The translations under genes and the position numbers were made by a program. From a virus (lineage: Duplodnaviria > Heunggongvirae > Uroviricota > Caudoviricetes), in the IMG/VR virus record IMGVR_UViG_2541047842_000005: a stretch of 54,238 nucleotides of DNA; one strand, written 5' to 3'. Below, one piece after another: positions 3,961 to 45,493 of this stretch. Each line of letters starts with the position of its first letter. Positions within the stretch are counted from its first letter, which is position 1. Under the pieces are notes generated by a model. It did no database searches and was not told where the DNA came from. It saw only the letters and a program-made list of their open reading frames with translations.

Positions 3961-5079
3961 TTACAAAATGGAATATTCAGGGTAATAAACAAAACGCCCG
4001 ATTTCCCCATGATCCGGGCTGTAAATAATCACCGCTGCCATCCGCCGCGACCGCCATCCGCCATTTGTTGAGTAAGCGTCTTTACCCGCTAACGTGCCGT
4101 GATACTCAACAACGCCTAACGATGATTCAATCAGCCGTTGATGATGCCAGTGCCCGCAATGAGCGTAAACCGCCGCAGACTTGCCAAAGTCTTCTCGCCA
4201 GTCAGAGACGCAGGCAGACAACAAATTTTCAGGTTTTTTGATAGTATGACCGTGATGATATGCAAGGAATGTTTTGCCGTACTGTGTGTGGTGGACGATG
4301 GCAGGTGACACATCAACAGTAACGCGCGGTTCGTCTTCGTAAAAAGCCGCCAGCGCCGCACGTAGCCAGATCATTCCTGACTGGTCGTGATTACCTGATA
4401 ACACCTGAATTTCTACATCCTTATGATTCAACAACATCTTACCTACAGCACGCCGGACCGACCGGATCGCCACATAAACAAGTTTTGCGTAGCGTGAATC
4501 GCAATCTAAGACGTGATTACTTGATGGCGTCACTGGTAATAGCCCGTCCGTGTGAAGCACATCACCGCCGAGAAGCAATACAGCTTTTTCAGACGTTGGT
4601 GCAGCGCCTACAGCGTAGTCAAAGAAGTCATTTAACACGCGTTCAGCGATCCCGGTGTCGTAGCTCTCACCGCATTCAGCTTTATGAGCAAGCGCCCCGA
4701 TATGCAGATCGAATACCGGATAAAGGGCCAGGCTTTTTTGGAAATCAATCTCAGGCACTGGCACAGCCTCCGCGCGTGGTATCTCTTCCGTGAAAGCGTC
4801 ACAAGCCGATTGCATTAGCATTTCCATTTCATCGCGGTCACGGGCTGTTTTAATCCAGCGCATAATCACATTGCCATCCTTATCGACGAGCAATGACTCA
4901 CCATTGACGCCAAAACCCGGCGCGCGACGCGTGGATATTAAACCGCGTTTCGCCAGCCGTGCGCCCAGTCGTTCAACGTTGCGTTTTGCCATTCCATATT
5001 CTTCGGCTATTTGCTTGTAAGTTTTCCCATTGTTGTATTCAGCGATTAATTGCTCGTCGCTGATCTTTCTTTGCGACAT
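3961..5079 (-). CDS. HTH domain fused to calcineurin-like metallophosphoesterase
   Basis: 372 aa; N-terminal HTH (YKQIAEEYGMAKRNVERLGARLAKRGLI); phosphoesterase signature DLHIG...GGDVLHTDG...GNHD; sits immediately upstream of the helicase gene. Confidence 0.65.
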   Translation of the reverse strand: MSQRKISDEQLIAEYNNGKTYKQIAEEYGMAKRNVERLGARLAKRGLISTRRAPGFGVNGESLLVDKDGNVIMRWIKTARDRDEMEMLMQSACDAFTEEIPRAEAVPVPEIDFQKSLALYPVFDLHIGALAHKAECGESYDTGIAERVLNDFFDYAVGAAPTSEKAVLLLGGDVLHTDGLLPVTPSSNHVLDCDSRYAKLVYVAIRSVRRAVGKMLLNHKDVEIQVLSGNHDQSGMIWLRAALAAFYEDEPRVTVDVSPAIVHHTQYGKTFLAYHHGHTIKKPENLLSACVSDWREDFGKSAAVYAHCGHWHHQRLIESSLGVVEYHGTLAGKDAYSTNGGWRSRRMAAVIIYSPDHGEIGRFVYYPEYSIL

Positions 5080-5255
5080 AATGTTATTTCCTCCGGTTCA
5101 CTGAATGAGTATTTATTCATAAAAAACTAATTTTTATTAACATGGGTTTCACGGTGGCAAAAAATGCCAGCAGGGTTAATCAACAACTTATGCAAATTGA
5201 AATAACTACTTAATGAATAACTAATCGTACACATTGTGGTTTACATTTTGTATAT

Positions 5256-6179
5256 TCATTGGCAGCAAACAAGCCCTTTATATGCTTCTTCTACCATGTC
5301 GAATACTTCCGGCCTGTAATAGAAAAACTCATTACTGCCATCAAATTTTACAGGAAAGTTAATTTTATAATTGCTGAAATATTTATGCATCATGCTTTCT
5401 AATTCATGGATATTTTCGGTTGGACCTTCTAACGTTTTCACGACACATAAATCAGGGATTCTAACGCCTGATTTATGTGCGCTTTTTAATACCCGATTTC
5501 TTCGCTTGTTCTCATTAACGCTTACGCCGATTTTCATTTGTGTAGGCACTTCAGGATCATCAACCATGATGTAAAGTTTGCCGAAATTGTGTGACAAAAA
5601 ACCGTGTTTCGCACATTTCGGGCAGCCTTGCCCGCTTTTAATAGCATAAGGTCTAGGCGACCACTTATGATCACAAACCTTGCATCGACATAATACTTTT
5701 GTCCTATCGTTTATTATTTCTCCCAATACTTCAATATCATGATTTACCTTAGTGATAGCGGATAAATGTTCTTCGTGTGATAATGTTCGTCTTTGTGCGA
5801 TTTTTAAACCTTTACATTTCGGGCAGCCGCGCCCGTTTTTTAGGTTGTTAGGTTTAGCCGACCATTCGTGATTACAAACTTTGCAGCGGCATAATGCTTT
5901 TGTATCGCCGTTTATTATTTCGCCAATCACTTCGACATCAGAATTAACCTTCTCGATAGCGGCAACCTGTTCTTCGTGTGATAATTTCATCTTTCCGGCG
6001 CATTTCGGGCAGCCGTAACCGCTTTTAAGATTGTAAGGTCTAGCCGACCATTCGTGACTGCAAACCTTGCAGCGGCAGGATACTTTTGTCCTGTTATTGA
6101 CAATTTCCCCCAGCACTTCGACATCATGATTAACCTTAGCGATAGCCGCAACCTGTTCATCATGTGTTAACTTGCGCAT
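5256..6179 (-). CDS. triple zinc-ribbon repeat protein with C-terminal T5orf172/GIY-YIG-like domain
   Basis: 307 aa; three tandem ~56-aa repeats HxEQVAAIxKVNxDVEVxGEIxNxxTKxxCRCKVCxHEWSAxPxNLKxGxGCPKC; C-terminus GKLYIMVDD..KIGVSVNENKRRNR..H..EFFYY fits the T5orf172 pattern; strong SD AAGGAG. Confidence 0.55.
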   Translation of the reverse strand: MRKLTHDEQVAAIAKVNHDVEVLGEIVNNRTKVSCRCKVCSHEWSARPYNLKSGYGCPKCAGKMKLSHEEQVAAIEKVNSDVEVIGEIINGDTKALCRCKVCNHEWSAKPNNLKNGRGCPKCKGLKIAQRRTLSHEEHLSAITKVNHDIEVLGEIINDRTKVLCRCKVCDHKWSPRPYAIKSGQGCPKCAKHGFLSHNFGKLYIMVDDPEVPTQMKIGVSVNENKRRNRVLKSAHKSGVRIPDLCVVKTLEGPTENIHELESMMHKYFSNYKINFPVKFDGSNEFFYYRPEVFDMVEEAYKGLVCCQ

Positions 6180-7863: not shown

Positions 7864-8168
7864 CGCATTTTCTCCTATGGTTAGAGTGAACGCGCGGGCG
7901 GGCATCCCATTAGCATTAGATAGCAGTGACTGACCGCTCAACAGATCCCGCCGTTGCGTGATATTTGTTTTTCGCTTCGCAGCGACACCGGATTTTTAAA
8001 GAGCATAAGGTAAGTGCCTTTTTGTGCCTTCAGTTATCTTTTTCCTTGCGTCTTTGCAAGTATGGCCTTACCTTGTCTGCAAGTTTACAAAATGGAATTT
8101 TAAGATCAAGGCTTAAAATACACGTTTTGTGACTTGCATCAAACTTTTTGAGGTTATAGGGTAGCGAC
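7864..8168. promoter_or_regulatory. divergent immunity control region (candidate operators and promoters)
   Basis: Non-coding gap between the divergent cI-like and early-operon genes; repeated half-site TGCAAGT at about 8055-8061 and 8078-8084, and inverted at 8133-8139; also TTTACAAAATGGAAT and TGTGA-N6-TCAAA. Confidence 0.45.
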
Positions 8169-8816
8169 ATGAAAACAAAATGGTATGACTTAGCAAAGCA
8201 GCTCATGCGGGCGCAGGGCATGAGTCAGGATTCACTCGCAGATCTCATGGGGATAACTAAAGGCGGCCTGTCACACTGGCTGAACGGTCGCCGCGAGCCA
8301 AATCTTGAAGATATTGCGCGGATTATGCGGGCGCTTGGTCGTCGGCAGTTCACTGTTACACATGATGGTATGGTCATTGATGATTCTGTTTCTAATACAC
8401 TTCAGGCCGCACCGCCGCGTGATTTAGGTAGTTACCCGGTTATTGACTGGAAGGACACAGTAAACAATATGGATGACACAAGGCGATCAGCATTACCACA
8501 CGTTACGACTAGCGTTATTTGTTCAGATGATAGTTACTGGCTGGTTGCCAAAGGTGAATCAATGAACGCGCCGCAGGGGTTGAGCATCCCGGCGGGGACG
8601 ATGATACTTGTTGACCCGCACGCGCCAGCTATTGACGGCAAACTGGTTATAGCCCAGCTTGAGGAAGGGCAGATACCGACGTTTAAACAGTTGATTATTG
8701 ATGGAGGTCAAAGGCTTTTACGTTCGCTCAATCCGCTGTATCCGCCAATCCCTATGAATCCAGAATCAAAAATTATAGGCGTGGTGGTTGATGCGAAGAT
8801 CGTAAACCTGCCATAA
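8169..8816 (+). CDS. cI: cI-type phage repressor (HTH plus S24 LexA-like peptidase domain)
   Basis: 215 aa; N-terminal HTH (QDSLADLMGITKGGLSHWLNGRREP); C-terminal S24 fold with GESM serine and a downstream FKQL lysine. Confidence 0.85.
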   Translation: MKTKWYDLAKQLMRAQGMSQDSLADLMGITKGGLSHWLNGRREPNLEDIARIMRALGRRQFTVTHDGMVIDDSVSNTLQAAPPRDLGSYPVIDWKDTVNNMDDTRRSALPHVTTSVICSDDSYWLVAKGESMNAPQGLSIPAGTMILVDPHAPAIDGKLVIAQLEEGQIPTFKQLIIDGGQRLLRSLNPLYPPIPMNPESKIIGVVVDAKIVNLP

Positions 8817-8846: not shown

Positions 8847-8939
8847 GCCTGGAAAACGCCAAAACGTAAACAGAAAACGTTATTTATTGTTTAAATATCA
8901 ATAGCATATAAAATATTTTAAAAAAGTATACAAAATGGA

Positions 8940-8968
8940 TTGACTCGATGTTTTACGGGGCGTATATT
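8940..8968 (+). promoter_or_regulatory. sigma70-like promoter (pL analogue)
   Basis: TTGACT, 17-nt spacer, TATATT; a TATACAAAATGG motif lies directly upstream. Confidence 0.4.
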
Positions 8969-12981: not shown

Positions 12982-13080
12982 CAGCGTGATTGCGATCACA
13001 TAAATATACATTTTGTGTTGTGATCGCGTATCCGTTTTGTAAACCGAAATCAAAAGGTTTACGGCACGGAGGAAAACAAG

Positions 13081-16388: not shown

Positions 16389-16547
16389 AATTTACAAAAT
16401 GGCGCCATTGCGTGATGTGGATCACATAATGGCGCTATTCACCTTGTTCTGGTGTATCCATTTTGTATACTTCAAGCAAACGAAATGCTCTTTAAAAATC
16501 CGGCAGCGCTGAAATGCGTAGAAATCACCTGAAAAGGAGAGAGCATT

Positions 16548-22645: not shown

Positions 22646-22701
22646 ATGTGATCTGTATCACAAGGTTTACGAAATGGCATTGTTTCGGCAGTGCCATTTT
22701 G

Positions 22702-39672: not shown

Positions 39673-39712
39673 TATACAAAATGGAGTCGTTGAAGTAAAG
39701 CCATTTTGTATA
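39673..39712. repeat. inverted repeat TATACAAAATGG - N16 - CCATTTTGTATA in the divergent intergenic region
   Basis: 12-nt arms, perfect; lies between the start of the minus-strand lipoprotein gene and the tape measure gene. Confidence 0.6.
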
Positions 39713-39752
39713 AAATAGATACACAGATCACATTTTTGCATGAGGTTAAATC

Positions 39753-42101: not shown

Positions 42102-42131
42102 CCCCGGCACAATGCCGGGGCTATCTTTATT
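42102..42131. terminator. bidirectional rho-independent terminator
   Basis: CCCCGGC-ACAAT-GCCGGGG flanked by an A-rich tract upstream and a T-rich tract downstream. Confidence 0.55.
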
Positions 42132-42306
42132 CAATTTCATCATTTTTAAATTCGCCGTTTGCATAAAGCTGTAATGCGCTTATCAGTTCGTCAGCTTGCT
42201 TTTTGTCTATTACAATCATCTCGCAGTCGCTAACGTTCCATAATCTTCCATCATCTTCAACACTAAGATCAATCCTTCTGCATTCTTCAGTCTCATGAAT
42301 AATCAT
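42127..42306 (-). CDS. small hypothetical protein (59 aa), moron cluster 1
   Basis: MIIHETEECRRIDLSVEDDGRLWNV...; SD GAAGG upstream; not in the ORF track. Confidence 0.3.
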   Translation of the reverse strand: MIIHETEECRRIDLSVEDDGRLWNVSDCEMIVIDKKQADELISALQLYANGEFKNDEIE

Positions 42307-42345
42307 TATAAACCTTCATTATGTTATTAATTTTAGTGAATAAAT

Positions 42346-42516
42346 TTACTCAAATCTTGTATACCCTCTTTCAATTTTCCCTCCGTGTACACTTCTGGCA
42401 AATACCGCGTCAGTATACCTAAAAAATGGGCATGTATATGTATCACCTTTACTATCCATCCATTTTAGCACCCATGCCATACGTTTTACATTGCTTTTAT
42501 TTGCCGGGTTTTTCAT
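42346..42516 (-). CDS. small hypothetical protein (56 aa), moron cluster 1
   Basis: MKNPANKSNVKRMAWVLKWMDSKGDTYTCPFF...; strong SD GGAGGAAAATAAA-ATG; not in the ORF track. Confidence 0.35.
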   Translation of the reverse strand: MKNPANKSNVKRMAWVLKWMDSKGDTYTCPFFRYTDAVFARSVHGGKIERGYTRFE

Positions 42517-42634
42517 TTTATTTTCCTCCGCAAATTACAATCTTCCGTTTCTTGCTATATAGCTGCGAGAAAACATTACCAACCAAATATTCCAGATCTC
42601 CCTCCAGGTGAATTTATCGTCCTCCATACCCACC

Positions 42635-42889
42635 TCACTTATGGCAACCGCGAACGCCAGACAATTCATTGAATTTATGGTGTTCAACAATCACCCACTC
42701 CTTCAGATCCTGGCTATAGACTCGCCAGTCTAAATTGGCGCGGAAGGCGTAGCCGTAACCGTCTTTCAATTTTTTGGGTGACGCATTCTTGTTTAAAAAC
42801 GCGTTCAAAAGTTCCTTTGCTTTTTTGACTACATGCCCCGGCGCGTTTTTCTGTGCTTTCAGATTTTTGTCAATCGCTACCAGTTTCAT
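42635..42889 (-). CDS. HigB/RelE-superfamily toxin-like protein
   Basis: 84 aa; N-terminus MKLVAIDKNLKAQKNAPGH parallels E. coli HigB MHLITQKALKDAAEKYPQH and C-terminal ..LDWRVYSQDLKEWVIVEHHKF fits the RelE/HigB pattern (from memory). Confidence 0.4.
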   Translation of the reverse strand: MKLVAIDKNLKAQKNAPGHVVKKAKELLNAFLNKNASPKKLKDGYGYAFRANLDWRVYSQDLKEWVIVEHHKFNELSGVRGCHK

Positions 42890-42906
42890 AACTCACCCCA
42901 TCATCC

Positions 42907-43062
42907 TTAGTTAAGTGCCTTCAGGAAGAAGTCCCGGTATTCATCTTCTTTTGCATTCATCATGAATTGACCGTATTTGAATGCGTCGTCGAAACCCTTA
43001 ACGATTGCTATTTCCACTTGTTCGAATGCGTTGTTTAGCATTACCACTACATAGCGTTTCAT
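42907..43062 (-). CDS. small hypothetical protein (51 aa), upstream partner of the toxin-like gene
   Basis: Track ORF 42907-43137; ATG at 43062 has strong SD AAGGAGG 6 nt upstream. Confidence 0.35.
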   Translation of the reverse strand: MKRYVVVMLNNAFEQVEIAIVKGFDDAFKYGQFMMNAKEDEYRDFFLKALN

Positions 43063-43175
43063 TTTGGGCCTCCTTCGTTGGTACTGCTTTTCTTCTTGCT
43101 TTCTGTATACATCTTGTTGCGAACTATGTGAAGCCATATTGTAAACTAGCTATAATCATTGTACTGAAGATCTCA

Positions 43176-43197: not shown

Positions 43198-43229
43198 GAT
43201 ATATACAAAATGTAACTTATGGGGGTTTT

Positions 43230-43583
43230 ATGCCGGAAGTTTTCAGATGGACGCCGCAAAGAAGCTACAGCGTGACCAGGGAGCCAAACGTATCTGTCAT
43301 TAAACTTGGTGATGGGTATGAACAGCGCCAGGCGAAAGGGATCAACACATTGCTTGATAGCTACACCCTGGTTTTTAAAGGCAGTAGCGCAGGATGCGGT
43401 GATGGTGGGAACGTGGCGATCCAGGCAGAAGCATTCTTGAGGGCGCGCGGCGCTAGCGAGGCTTTTTACTGGTCGCCGTCTATGGATGGCGTGCAAAGGC
43501 TTTTTGTTTGCCGTAGCTGGAGTATGACAAAGGACGGGCCTGTATACACGCTAAACGCAACGTTTGAGCAAGTTATTAATTAG
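43230..43583 (+). CDS. minor tail protein M-like
   Basis: 117 aa; FRW...V.KV.FGDGY.QR...G.N......Y...F......FEQVIN colinear with lambda gpM as I recall it. Confidence 0.75.
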   Translation: MPEVFRWTPQRSYSVTREPNVSVIKLGDGYEQRQAKGINTLLDSYTLVFKGSSAGCGDGGNVAIQAEAFLRARGASEAFYWSPSMDGVQRLFVCRSWSMTKDGPVYTLNATFEQVIN

Positions 43584-43775
43584 GGAGGGGATATACCTTA
43601 TTTTTGTGTAGTGGAGCGCACTGGCGCTTTTACATTGTTCGCCGACTATGAAATTAATGATCTTACTGTCCGGGCTGATAACGGTGAGACGTGGTATCTT
43701 CATGATATGGGTGATGGATATATCGGCTGTACGACTTGGGATGGCAAAGAAGTAGCATTTCTATCCTACGATTAA

Positions 43776-43810
43776 AAAAAAAACACCCCGCCACGGCGGG
43801 GTTTATAGTG
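43776..43810. terminator. bidirectional terminator (A10 - hairpin - T-rich)
   Basis: AAAAAAAAAA followed by CCCCGCC-ACG-GCGGGG hairpin; gives a U-tract for minus-strand transcripts coming from the moron cluster. Confidence 0.55.
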
Positions 43811-43878
43811 TCGATAGCAGAATGCATGACAATCCAATAATGATAATGATCATTTCCAGAACGTAATGTTCGCACATC

Positions 43879-44127
43879 TCATAACGCCCCCTTCAAATAT
43901 GTCAATCCCTTATCAGTGACGAATGAGTGATTAACCTGGTTTTCATCCGTCATGATGATAAATAACTTTTCCTGTAGGTATTTCGCTTTAGGGTACAGCG
44001 TTAAGCAGACCTGGTACAGTATCCCGCGCTCAATCAGCAAATCAATAAATTCGTGTTCATGATAACCGATGAGGCGGGCGGCCTGTTTCAACGTGTACAC
44101 ATAATCACCGTGATTGCGCCGCCCCAT
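43879..44127 (-). CDS. hypothetical protein (82 aa), possibly HTH
   Basis: YTLKQAARLIGYHEHEFIDLLIERGIL has helix-turn-helix character; moron cluster 2. Confidence 0.4.
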   Translation of the reverse strand: MGRRNHGDYVYTLKQAARLIGYHEHEFIDLLIERGILYQVCLTLYPKAKYLQEKLFIIMTDENQVNHSFVTDKGLTYLKGAL

Positions 44128-44136
44128 GTTGCCGCC

Positions 44137-44490
44137 TTATTTATCGAATGCTGAAAGGTTATCGATACAGAAATCTTTCGCCGCTTTTTCGTATTCGCGT
44201 TTTGCTTCTGGATCGTCAGCCGGGAAACCTTTTGCGTGTATTTCACCAGGGCAAGACTGGTCCATAGAATCTGCATAATAAGCAGTGAAGCTACCATTAA
44301 TATCTTTCGGGTTCATATCTTCCACCTTATCCGGTATTTGTACTGGAGTAATTTTGAATTCTCTGGCGCGACCGAAGAATCGAACGAGTTTTTCTCCTTC
44401 CTCGACCGCCATTTCGTAACTGTCATGCAAACCGTAACCTTCCCAATCATCACTACCAGCCATCCAGACATCAAGACGATACTTTTGCAT
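44137..44490 (-). CDS. hypothetical protein (about 118 aa)
   Basis: Track ORF 44137-44592; ATG at 44490 has SD GAGGG and follows the stop of the upstream gene. Confidence 0.4.
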   Translation of the reverse strand: MQKYRLDVWMAGSDDWEGYGLHDSYEMAVEEGEKLVRFFGRAREFKITPVQIPDKVEDMNPKDINGSFTAYYADSMDQSCPGEIHAKGFPADDPEAKREYEKAAKDFCIDNLSAFDK

Positions 44491-44494
44491 TTTG

Positions 44495-44659
44495 CTAACC
44501 CTCATATTTGACAGGTTCGATCTGGTATCCCAAAAGGCGGTCATCCTCAGCAAGTAAAAGCGCGTCAACCAATGCTTCACCCTCGTCGTCATACAGGGCG
44601 ATAACCTTTTCCCTACCGTCTGTCATGAATACCGTCAACTTCCATAGCTTTTCAGTCAT
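44495..44659 (-). CDS. small hypothetical protein (about 54-60 aa)
   Basis: Track ORF 44495-44779 is over-extended; in-frame ATGs at 44677, 44668 and 44659; promoter-like TTGATC-17-TATATT on the minus strand at about 44709-44737. Confidence 0.3.
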   Translation of the reverse strand: MTEKLWKLTVFMTDGREKVIALYDDEGEALVDALLLAEDDRLLGYQIEPVKYEG

Positions 44660-44788
44660 AACGCACATCCGCGCCATTTTGTTAACCATGCTTCCGTTTG
44701 AGTAAAATATACATATTGTAAAAACCATGATCAATCCATTTTGGTGTGATTTAGCGTGACGCATATCACAAAATGACAAGGTGAGAAA

Positions 44789-45493
44789 ATGCGCAATATT
44801 CCGAGAGAGATGATTATTGATTCCGTCGATGCCGGAGTTGGCGCGGTCATTGACTTATTTGAACTGGACCTTACTCCCCTGGGAGGCGAGGTTATCCGCT
44901 TCCATTCCGGCGCGAACGGCTATTACGGCCAGGTTATCTGGAAGGGAGTAGCTTACAACAGCTACCCGATCGAGGCGACGGGCTTCGAAATGAAAAATGA
45001 GGGTGTTTATTCACGGCCTCAAATGGTTGTAGCCAATATCGGCGGACTCATTACGGGGATGAACAACGATTTTAACGACCTTAGAGGAATGAAGGTTACG
45101 CGCCGCCAGGTGGAGGTGAAATATCTTGACGCCGTTAACTTCCCTAACGGTAATCCAGACGCAGATCCATCTATTGAGGCTGTATCTTTTTACGTCATTG
45201 AAGCAATGAGCGAAGAAACAGCGGATCAGGTGCAGTATGAACTGTCAACGCCAATTGATGCAGATAAAGCTGTCATCCCTGGGCGCACCATCCTTGCTGA
45301 CGTTTGCCAGTGGCAATACAGAGGCGACGGGTGTATGTACGCTGGCGGACCAGTAGCAAACGATAAAGACGAGCCGACAAGCGATCCTAAAGCCGACAGA
45401 TGTAGCCACCGTCTGAGCGGTTGTCGTTTACGTTTCCCGCGTCCAAATCCGTTACCAATTTCCTGTTTCCCCGGTTCAAGTAAGGTGGGCTAA
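44789..45493 (+). CDS. minor tail protein L-like
   Basis: 234 aa; C-terminal Cys cluster (CQWQYRGDGC...CSHRLSGC) as in lambda gpL; order M-L-K-I-J. Confidence 0.75.
   Translation: MRNIPREMIIDSVDAGVGAVIDLFELDLTPLGGEVIRFHSGANGYYGQVIWKGVAYNSYPIEATGFEMKNEGVYSRPQMVVANIGGLITGMNNDFNDLRGMKVTRRQVEVKYLDAVNFPNGNPDADPSIEAVSFYVIEAMSEETADQVQYELSTPIDADKAVIPGRTILADVCQWQYRGDGCMYAGGPVANDKDEPTSDPKADRCSHRLSGCRLRFPRPNPLPISCFPGSSKVG

Follow-up and report, generated by a model that had tools for sequence, protein, structure and literature searches.

The genes for the minor tail proteins gpM and gpL are contiguous in phage lambda, whereas in the virus record IMGVR_UViG_2541047842_000005 (IMG/VR; 54,238 nucleotides, hereafter the window) their homologues are separated by a cassette of three minus-strand genes, designated A, B and C in the order of transcription, which raises the question of what an antisense unit inside a tail operon does and when it is expressed. 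The phage in the window is an mEp021-like (mEpimmI) temperate coliphage; phages of this group are Nus-dependent and non-lambdoid (Negrete-Mendez et al. 2025, PMC11893012). The answer put forward here, tentatively, is that the cassette, lodged together with a plus-strand gene X and a hairpin shared by both, is a conserved accessory operon that would be under immunity control and have an early anti-host or antirepressor-type role. It proceeds from a point newly added by this analysis, namely, that the putative cassette promoter, Pcas, is by its sequence elements an inverted copy of the predicted early rightward promoter of the phage.

Organization of the cassette and selection on its genes

Three minus-strand genes between the gpM-like and gpL-like genes had been proposed in an earlier note made without database searches; their presence was confirmed, with products of 54, 117 (not 118) and 82 amino acids (aa). 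Genes A (44659–44495), B (44490–44137) and C (44127–43879) are tightly packed, with gaps of 4 nt and 9 nt. A encodes an acidic protein with an isoelectric point (pI) of 4.2 (phrog_29559, E 4e-39), B encodes an acidic protein with a pI of 4.6 (phrog_38567), and C, the conserved member of the operon, encodes a stand-alone KilAC/ANT domain (PF03374). The earlier note overlooked gene X (43611–43775, plus strand), which is part of the same insertion: it is co-oriented with the tail genes, encodes a 54-aa acidic protein (pI 4.1; phrog_3249, E 1.5e-14) and is affected by the same indel as the cassette, being lost together with C-B-A in one related contig, L009 (IMGVR_UViG_3300045988_076424).

A convergent terminator common to X and the cassette (43776–43812), annotated on both strands in mEp021, consists of A10, a 7-bp GC stem (43785–43802) and a T-rich tail. 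In the minus-strand RNA the stem is followed by G and U10, whereas the plus-strand tail is only UUUAUAGU; the terminator in the window is thus strong on the minus strand and weaker on the plus strand. In most relatives the strengths are reversed, the plus strand having the stronger terminator, and the stem is kept while the loop and upper stem are changed. Consequently, of the bidirectional terminator described earlier, the hairpin and the minus-strand U10 stand, and on the plus strand the window has only a weaker version. A search of 41.9–45.2 kb against Rfam at permissive thresholds returned only sub-threshold chance matches.

The ratios of non-synonymous to synonymous divergence (dN/dS), calculated pairwise across 28–36 distinct alleles, were 0.066 for X, 0.215 for A, 0.207 for B and 0.109 for C, versus 0.065 for gpM and 0.044 for gpL. 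Values of 0.066–0.215 indicate that X, A, B and C are all real coding genes under purifying selection; the non-synonymous rate of A and B was 3–6 times faster than that of the tail genes. None of the four products is similar to known defence proteins or to proteins of the virion, and the core three (A, B and C) are small, cytoplasmic-looking and carry no membrane or lipoprotein signal. The description of the cassette as an autonomous, antisense, non-structural unit with its own promoter and terminator is borne out by these elements and by those considered below.

Predicted promoter of the cassette and its early paralogue

The minus-strand promoter TTGATC-17-TATATT claimed earlier was recovered by a promoter scan at 44734–44706. 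As a plain consensus match it was no better than chance, with 7 such sites in the region versus 7.5 expected; Pcas is credible because its hexamers are near-invariant in 34 distinct relatives and because it is paralogous to an early promoter of the same phage. In these relatives, near-invariance was found for the −35 hexamer (GATCAA or TATCAA on the plus strand), the −10 hexamer (AATATA), a CCATTTTGTTAAC block in the 5′ untranslated region (UTR), a CC(A/G)TTTTGG block abutting the −35 hexamer and the half-sites of a GTGA-N6-TCACA palindrome; parts of the Pcas spacer, the palindrome centre and other UTR positions were variable. An exact copy of a phage-wide motif, ACAAAATGG, located in the 5′ UTR at approximately +17 to +26 (44674–44682, minus strand), was invariant in the 34 relatives, and another copy, CCAAAATGG (44736–44744, minus strand), abuts the −35 hexamer, placed exactly as at a PR-like promoter in the early region.

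The PR-like promoter, a strong promoter-like site (TTGACT-17-TATATT, 10/12 matches; 8931–8968, plus strand), lies downstream of the CI-like repressor gene (8169–8816) and its terminator and upstream of an N-like antiterminator gene; because this is the position expected of it, it is likely the early rightward promoter. For the mEpimmI early region, nutR1 and Gp17 have been described (PMC11893012). The composite pattern CAAAAYGGWTTGAY-N17-19-TATATT has exactly two copies in 54 kb (0.00 expected), at 8931–8968 on the plus strand and at 44743–44706 on the minus strand, and was also found in mEp021, at the PR-equivalent promoter, and in 29 relatives, at Pcas. The homology between Pcas and the PR-like promoter spans approximately −47 to +20, and both carry a TCAAA(G/CG)GAAG block at approximately +8 to +20. 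The early promoter of mEp021 keeps the same blocks with a different spacer, and every block conserved there is present at Pcas as well. Since Pcas is paralogous to the early promoter, we infer that the cassette is expressed early and is immunity-controlled, not constitutive in lysogens; given the copied early promoter, constitutive expression in lysogens appears less likely. It should also be noted that an 8-bp inverted repeat, TTGACTCG...CGAGTCAA, brackets the PR-like promoter and that the divergent region upstream of the repressor gene contains an inverted pair of the ACAAAATGG motif.

The conserved palindrome upstream of Pcas, CGTGACGCATATCACA (44755–44770), is centred at about −63.5 from the inferred start and overlaps a third motif copy, ACAAAATGA, at 44768–44776. 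It matches the CRP core at 9/10 positions and is close to the class-I position, so that it could be a CRP site or a phage operator, its over-representation in the phage fitting a phage regulator equally well. It lies upstream of the core promoter, not over it, whereas an 11-bp palindrome, TACATATTGTA, overlaps the Pcas −10 hexamer. No LexA box was found near the cassette, and the whole window contains no perfect one; a Gifsy/N15-style SOS-controlled antirepressor was ruled out by this absence.

The ACAAAATGG 9-mer has 14 copies in the window versus 0.92 expected, with the extended form T(T/A)TACAAAATGG, and may be an operator to which the immunity repressor or some other regulator of the phage binds. 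GTGA-N6-TCAC has 7 copies versus 0.44 expected, and the two elements co-occur in most intergenic or operon-boundary regions. The copies of ACAAAATGG include those at 3963, 8087, 8930, 16394, 16466 (minus strand), 22702 (minus strand), 39676, 39709 (minus strand), 44682 (minus strand) and 52117; one-mismatch copies occur at 43205, 44736–44744 and 44768–44776. They are mostly intergenic, often form convergent pairs and are present at both early-promoter regions. Palindromes of the CGTGAT-N4-ATCACA form were found at 12985–13000, 16411–16426, 22647–22662, 44755–44770 and 52104–52119, and also at 8128–8143 and ~39722; the set is CRP-site-like, and the palindrome at 22647 is a perfect TGTGA-N6-TCACA. 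These palindromes and the motif form TTTACAAAATGG are putative regulator-binding sites. At 39676–39730, directly upstream of the tape measure start (39753), an inverted pair TATACAAAATGG-N16-CCATTTTGTATAA is followed by ACACAGATCACA, which is the same combination as at Pcas.

Gene C, a stand-alone KilAC/ANT domain

The product of C matched PF03374 (ANT/KilAC) with 28.7 bits (Pfam gathering score 25.3; E 1.8e-6) over profile positions 23–102 of 108; this was the sole family matched in the Pfam scan, and the relatives of C are precomputed as its members. The predicted fold weakly resembles winged helix-turn-helix (HTH) domains of the MerR/Xis (excisionase) type. Thus, of the HTH character attributed earlier to the last gene, what stands is a KilAC/ANT match above the cut-off, the likeness to an HTH-type fold being only weak. 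In Vibrio, Cronobacter, Hafnia and Stx phages, proteins of the Rha/Ant type have C-terminal domains that share 30–41% identity with C; an N-terminal AntA/AntB, Bro-N or Rha domain was absent from C in Pfam, its 82 aa, near neutral in charge, being KilAC alone. A PDB sequence search with C gave nothing significant.

In Listeria AriS, the isolated KilAC domain is sufficient to block the SOS response, probably via RecA (PMC9043618). This is the one piece of functional evidence on a KilAC domain in isolation. For comparison, the AriS-type protein Gp42 of phage A118 has AntA plus ANT domains, and no pairwise similarity between it and C was found; because of this, carrying the SOS-blocking function over to C by analogy is weak. 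Equation of C with the haemolysis-inducing Ipe of mEp021, an ORF whose starts give 83, 82, 77 and 72 aa (PMC6379469), was rejected: no ORF with the Ipe start pattern was present in the window or in the mEp021 segment examined, and C has a single N-terminal Met.

C evolves differently from its neighbours, with a dN of 0.034 versus 0.11–0.19 for A and B. Its synonymous divergence (dS 0.31) is markedly below that of A, B, X, gpM and gpL (0.53–0.99), which suggests recent spread by recombination or an extra constraint at the nucleotide level. It also remains constant while neighbouring genes are swapped between B and C or downstream of C.

The properties of C bear on an alternative that we consider unlikely, in which the cassette is the phage's own secondary immunity or induction switch, with C acting as an antirepressor or transcription factor, possibly under CRP-like control, and offering a non-SOS route of induction. 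The domain content of C, the conserved GTGA-N6-TCACA palindrome upstream of Pcas and the established precedent of P22 immI would agree with it. So would the report that a KilAC-like gene is a core gene, present by manual analysis in all 48 mEpimmI genomes, and that mEpimmI lysogens are mostly not UV-inducible, the repressor having no Ala-Gly site for RecA-dependent cleavage (PMC11893012). Against such a switch stand the absence from C of the N-terminal domain of known antirepressors, the absence of a LexA box and the persistence of L009 without the cassette; moreover, it leaves the fast-evolving A and B unexplained.

Genes A and B and searches for known functions

The family of A comprises 19 clusters only; in some records its members are labelled "transporter", a label without basis. 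An in-frame upstream ATG within the ACAAAATGG motif was not accepted as the initiation codon of A: some relatives have lost it or have it in another frame, and the downstream ATG has a GGAGG Shine–Dalgarno sequence (GGAGG in most relatives, GGATG in the window). The family of B comprises 59 clusters, all from E. coli or mEpimmI-type phages, and a search of its profile against 1.84 billion representative proteins returned nothing beyond its own family and low-complexity noise.

B is a mosaic of an N-terminal domain (residues 1–52), a middle segment that occurs in alternative versions and an almost invariant C-terminal tail of 44 residues. The N-terminal domain is hypervariable (dN 0.34, dN/dS 0.23), with a beta-beta-alpha-beta topology modelled by AlphaFold2 at a predicted local distance difference test score (pLDDT) of >90; dN/dS was 0.50 in the middle segment and 0.08 in the tail, which was poorly modelled. 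In BFVD, the N-terminal domain gave weak matches to many uncharacterised phage proteins of 53–70 aa, some of them DUF7336 (E 3e-3 to 5e-2, target TM score up to 0.8). The B model had no match in the PDB at E <= 0.001 (Foldseek), and nothing significant was found with the B profile among PDB sequences. Profile comparison of A with the N-terminal domain of B aligned 45 residues of the same topology (E 0.009, probability 4%) and did not establish paralogy. The invariant tail of B (44137–44268, DSMDQSCPGEIHAKGFPADDPEAKREYEKAAKDFCIDNLSAFDK) contains conserved C80, H85 and C108 in a low-confidence model, which may form a metal site or a partner-binding site. Judging from these comparisons, A and B are acidic, fast-evolving orphans confined to the mEpimmI phage group.

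Searches for known systems were negative: A, B, C and X had no match in PADLOC-DB v2 at E <= 1 and none in NCBIfam, and the variant genes m8, g13 and g15 of relatives had no PADLOC match at E <= 0.01. The attribution of a defence role to the cassette therefore found no support in PADLOC, NCBIfam or an informative Pfam match. For ribbon-helix-helix proteins of the P22 immI type (Arc/Mnt), neither A nor B matched a Pfam family of this fold, the KilAC domain being the only such component present. A toxin–antitoxin or abortive-infection module is scarcely credible. Loci of this kind typically pair small genes, one of them for an HTH protein, and a ParE-like domain is encoded in the minus-strand cassette next door (see below), but no toxin domain was detected in A, B, C or X with Pfam, NCBIfam or PADLOC, and a basic partner is missing, A, B and X having pI values of 4.1–4.6 and C being near neutral.

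Distribution in relatives and the insertion site

The cassette is flanked on the left by the gpM homologue (43230–43583, plus strand; PF05939, E 6.5e-28), which is 85–100% identical in relatives, and on the right by the gpL homologue (44789–45493, plus strand; PF05100, E 1.8e-71). The DNA of the region is 84–87% identical to that of Escherichia phages mEp021, mEp013, mEp515, mEp554, mEp044, mEp010 and MagusPhagus, and the gene order is shared; the IMG/VR contig L003 does not differ from the window across the whole region.

The close relatives comprise 42 IMG/VR contigs that contain both flanks and have a gpL of at least 85% identity; 41 of them carried the arrangement X(+), hairpin, C-B-A(−). 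It was also found in all seven GenBank relatives and, adjoining gpL, in 35 of 5,426 complete E. coli genomes; even the most divergent homologue of B (49% identical) has the same genomic context. The earlier reading is weakened by the near-universal presence of the cassette (41/42 IMG/VR contigs, 7/7 GenBank phages and 35 E. coli prophages), which is close to what the earlier note itself had named as telling against its claim. The single exception, L009 (53.9-kb contig; 5860–6000), has lost X, the hairpin, C, B and A by a natural deletion of ~1.08 kb. An M–L junction of 132 nt is left; the breakpoint falls on a microhomology, ATTTTGT, belonging to the phage-wide motif, and the promoter region is retained.

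In some relatives, extra small genes occupy the space between hairpin and C, encoding a 49-aa membrane peptide or orphans of 58–67 aa, or that between C and B, encoding a 79-aa orphan (the equivalent of mEp021_72) or, in L016, an HNH endonuclease. The endonuclease of L016 (IMGVR_UViG_3300029816_000005), between the B and C homologues, matches PF13392, and another is annotated in mEp021 between gpI and gpJ (L001, 6841–7407); these insertions suggest homing-type mobility within the tail region.

A sister clade has a gpL that is ~70% identical and, as its closest isolate, Salmonella phage ES18. Of its 36 contigs, 19 have an M–L gap of 46 nt, so that the junction interrupted here, contiguous in lambda, is near-contiguous in them as well. 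The remaining 17 carry 179–1302 nt of unrelated cargo at this junction. Examples are a 268-aa DUF6602/NucC-like PD-DExK nuclease in L054 (gap coordinates 4325–5131; PADLOC PD_DExK, E 2.7e-26, and NucC, E 9.8e-14), a retropepsin-like protein in L081 and a CxxCxxCC protein in L073. The comparison of presence and absence at the M–L junction called for earlier thus gave presence in 41 of 42 close relatives and absence in L009 and, in the sister clade, an empty junction in 19 of 36 contigs and unrelated cargo in the others. In these genomes, the M–L junction appears as a recurrent insertion site of this tail-module family. Because ES18 and the sister clade carry insertions at the same junction, the architecture and the site are already known, and the cassette is vertically retained cargo particular to the mEpimmI lineage.

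Another minus-strand cassette (42127–43137), separating the tape measure gene from gpM, precedes the one under study. It encodes an 84-aa protein (42635–42889) that matches the ParE-like toxin domain PF24732 above the cut-off (E 1.2e-7); its other three ORFs have no family.

These data allow the cassette to be considered as a classical moron, constitutively expressed in the lysogen and benefiting the host by way of fitness, exclusion or defence, as with lambda bor/lom or HK97 gp15; we regard this reading as rather doubtful. The unit is antisense to the late operon, has at the sequence level its own promoter (44734–44706) and hairpin with U10 (43802–43776), has a deviant GC content (43.7% versus 51.4% in gpM and 50.6% in gpL) and is absent from L009 and from the sister clade. 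The genes at the same position in ES18 are annotated as "possible moron", and the NucC-like nuclease at the sister-clade junction and the ParE-like protein of the neighbouring cassette would also fit. However, the presence of the cassette is near-universal, not sporadic, its small, acidic, cytoplasmic-looking products match no defence model, and Pcas copies an early promoter, which must be off in lysogens.

Proposed role and its limits

In the early anti-host or antirepressor-type reading, the sigma-70-type elements of Pcas, facing away from gpL, would drive transcription of A, B and C up to the GC hairpin with U10. Judging from the copied elements (the ACAAAATGG element abutting the −35 hexamer, the −10 hexamer and the initial transcribed block), the operon would fire with the early genes on infection or induction, and in the lysogen it would be kept silent by the immunity regulator that also controls these genes; later, converging antiterminated late transcription would overrun and silence it. 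C would serve as the conserved component, with a regulatory or antirepressor-type function, and A and B as variable effectors, small, acidic and fast-diversifying, built on a common phage domain of ~55 aa. Together, they would most likely bind and neutralise host or resident-prophage proteins early, by counter-defence, antirepression or modulation of SOS/RecA.

Several points weigh against this reading. The timing of cassette expression rests wholly on the promoter paralogy. The shared motif could instead bind an activator or a host factor or act like an UP element, and Pcas would then possibly be constitutive in lysogens. A, B and C match no defence or anti-defence family, and A and B have no informative fold match. 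The near-universal presence of C is unusual for arms-race cargo and fits the phage's own regulation. Finally, the same intergenic DNA contains a plus-strand promoter-like site, TTGTTA-18-TAAAAT (44679–44708), which is retained in the cassette-less L009, and part of the intergenic conservation may serve gpL.

The last point underlies a further, very improbable alternative, according to which the A–gpL intergenic region functions mainly on the plus strand, restarting or regulating the transcription of gpL-K-I-J beyond the hairpin, the minus-strand promoter being incidental and A-B-C being expressed weakly or from elsewhere. The −10 hexamer of the plus-strand site stays TAAAAT or TACAAT in relatives, L009 is intact from exactly TTGTTAAC onward, and the hairpin of most relatives would terminate plus-strand transcription better than minus-strand transcription. 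However, the PR-like paralogy is in the minus orientation and covers the −35 hexamer, the −10 hexamer and the transcribed block, and three tightly coupled genes under selection need a promoter, no other being evident. Moreover, a Q-like antitermination function is encoded, so that a restart promoter is not required (PMC11893012).

A more far-reaching version of the early anti-host reading appears improbable taken as a whole. In it, an immediate-early, immunity-controlled operon would have arisen from a duplicated PR-type promoter, with ACAAAATGG forming a genome-wide operator network at nearly every operon boundary. The cassette would then be a new anti-host system, in which a KilAC-only protein would modulate RecA/SOS or heterologous prophage repressors, contributing to the non-UV-inducibility of mEpimmI lysogens, and two DUF7336-like acidic proteins would neutralise host defence.

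Among human-gut coliphages, the mEpimmI phages reportedly equal lambdoid phages in frequency, and about half of their genes, this conserved operon included, have no known function. If the cassette is an early counter-defence or antirepressor module, it would add new families (KilAC-only and DUF7336-like acidic proteins) to the E. coli phage repertoire for anti-defence and inter-prophage conflict; the M–L tail junction would be a predictable place for finding such cargo, and the promoter paralogy would give a handle on the operator code of the mEpimmI group. If it is an ordinary moron, it is an already annotated feature of modest interest. Already known were the genes, annotated in mEp021 and relatives, and the insertion pattern, annotated in ES18. 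This analysis adds the frequency of the cassette among relatives, the natural deletion, the insertion hot spot common with the sister clade, the estimates of selection, the description of B as a mosaic, the fold assignments and the paralogy of the two promoters.

Comparison with known systems

The direct orthologues of the genes studied are gp70–gp74 of mEp021 and their equivalents in mEp010, mEp013, mEp044, mEp515, mEp554 and MagusPhagus, which have the same position and order. Identity is 91–100% for C, 69–73% for A and 67–68% for B, A and B having been scored in mEp021 and MagusPhagus only. In mEp021, the terminators are annotated and gp71 is a "putative antirepressor", the others being hypothetical proteins. 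It differs in that B and C are separated by an additional gene, gp72, and that a small membrane peptide is encoded downstream of C, whereas the window has the minimal X|C-B-A arrangement.

Salmonella phage ES18 (AY736146) has the same tail module (gpM 66% and gpL 71% identical) and the same two insertion points (H–M and M–L). Its gp22 (minus strand), between the tape measure gene and gpM, and gp24 (plus strand) and gp25 (minus strand), between gpM and gpL, are all annotated as "possible moron", with terminators. At the M–L junction, both phages have a small plus-strand ORF followed by minus-strand ORFs; however, the cargo of ES18 is unrelated in sequence to X, A, B and C and includes one minus-strand gene versus three here.

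The lambdoid morons (lambda bor/lom and HK97 gp15) are likewise additional units in the late region that have a promoter and a terminator of their own and differ in base composition from their surroundings. They are prophage-expressed, with products that act at the envelope, whereas Pcas copies an early promoter and the core products of the cassette have no membrane features.

C shares the KilAC/ANT domain with P22/P1 Ant and Listeria AriS and differs from them in having no N-terminal AntA/Bro-N/Rha domain. In P22, the antirepressor region immI is located inside the late operon.

The acrIIA3-acrIIA2-acrIIA1 operon of Listeria phage A118 is likewise a minus-strand operon with its own terminator, located near or inside the late genes in the opposite orientation. 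No sequence relation of the cassette to Acr or Aca proteins is apparent, and its palindrome lies upstream of the core promoter. It resembles acr-aca operons in having its own promoter, small variable proteins, a conserved 3′ gene of HTH type and a terminator; the order is also similar (promoter, A, B, g15 or HNH in some relatives, C), genes being swapped in upstream of C. This layout, matching that of acr-aca operons and of P22 immI, is in line with the early anti-host or antirepressor-type role proposed for the cassette.

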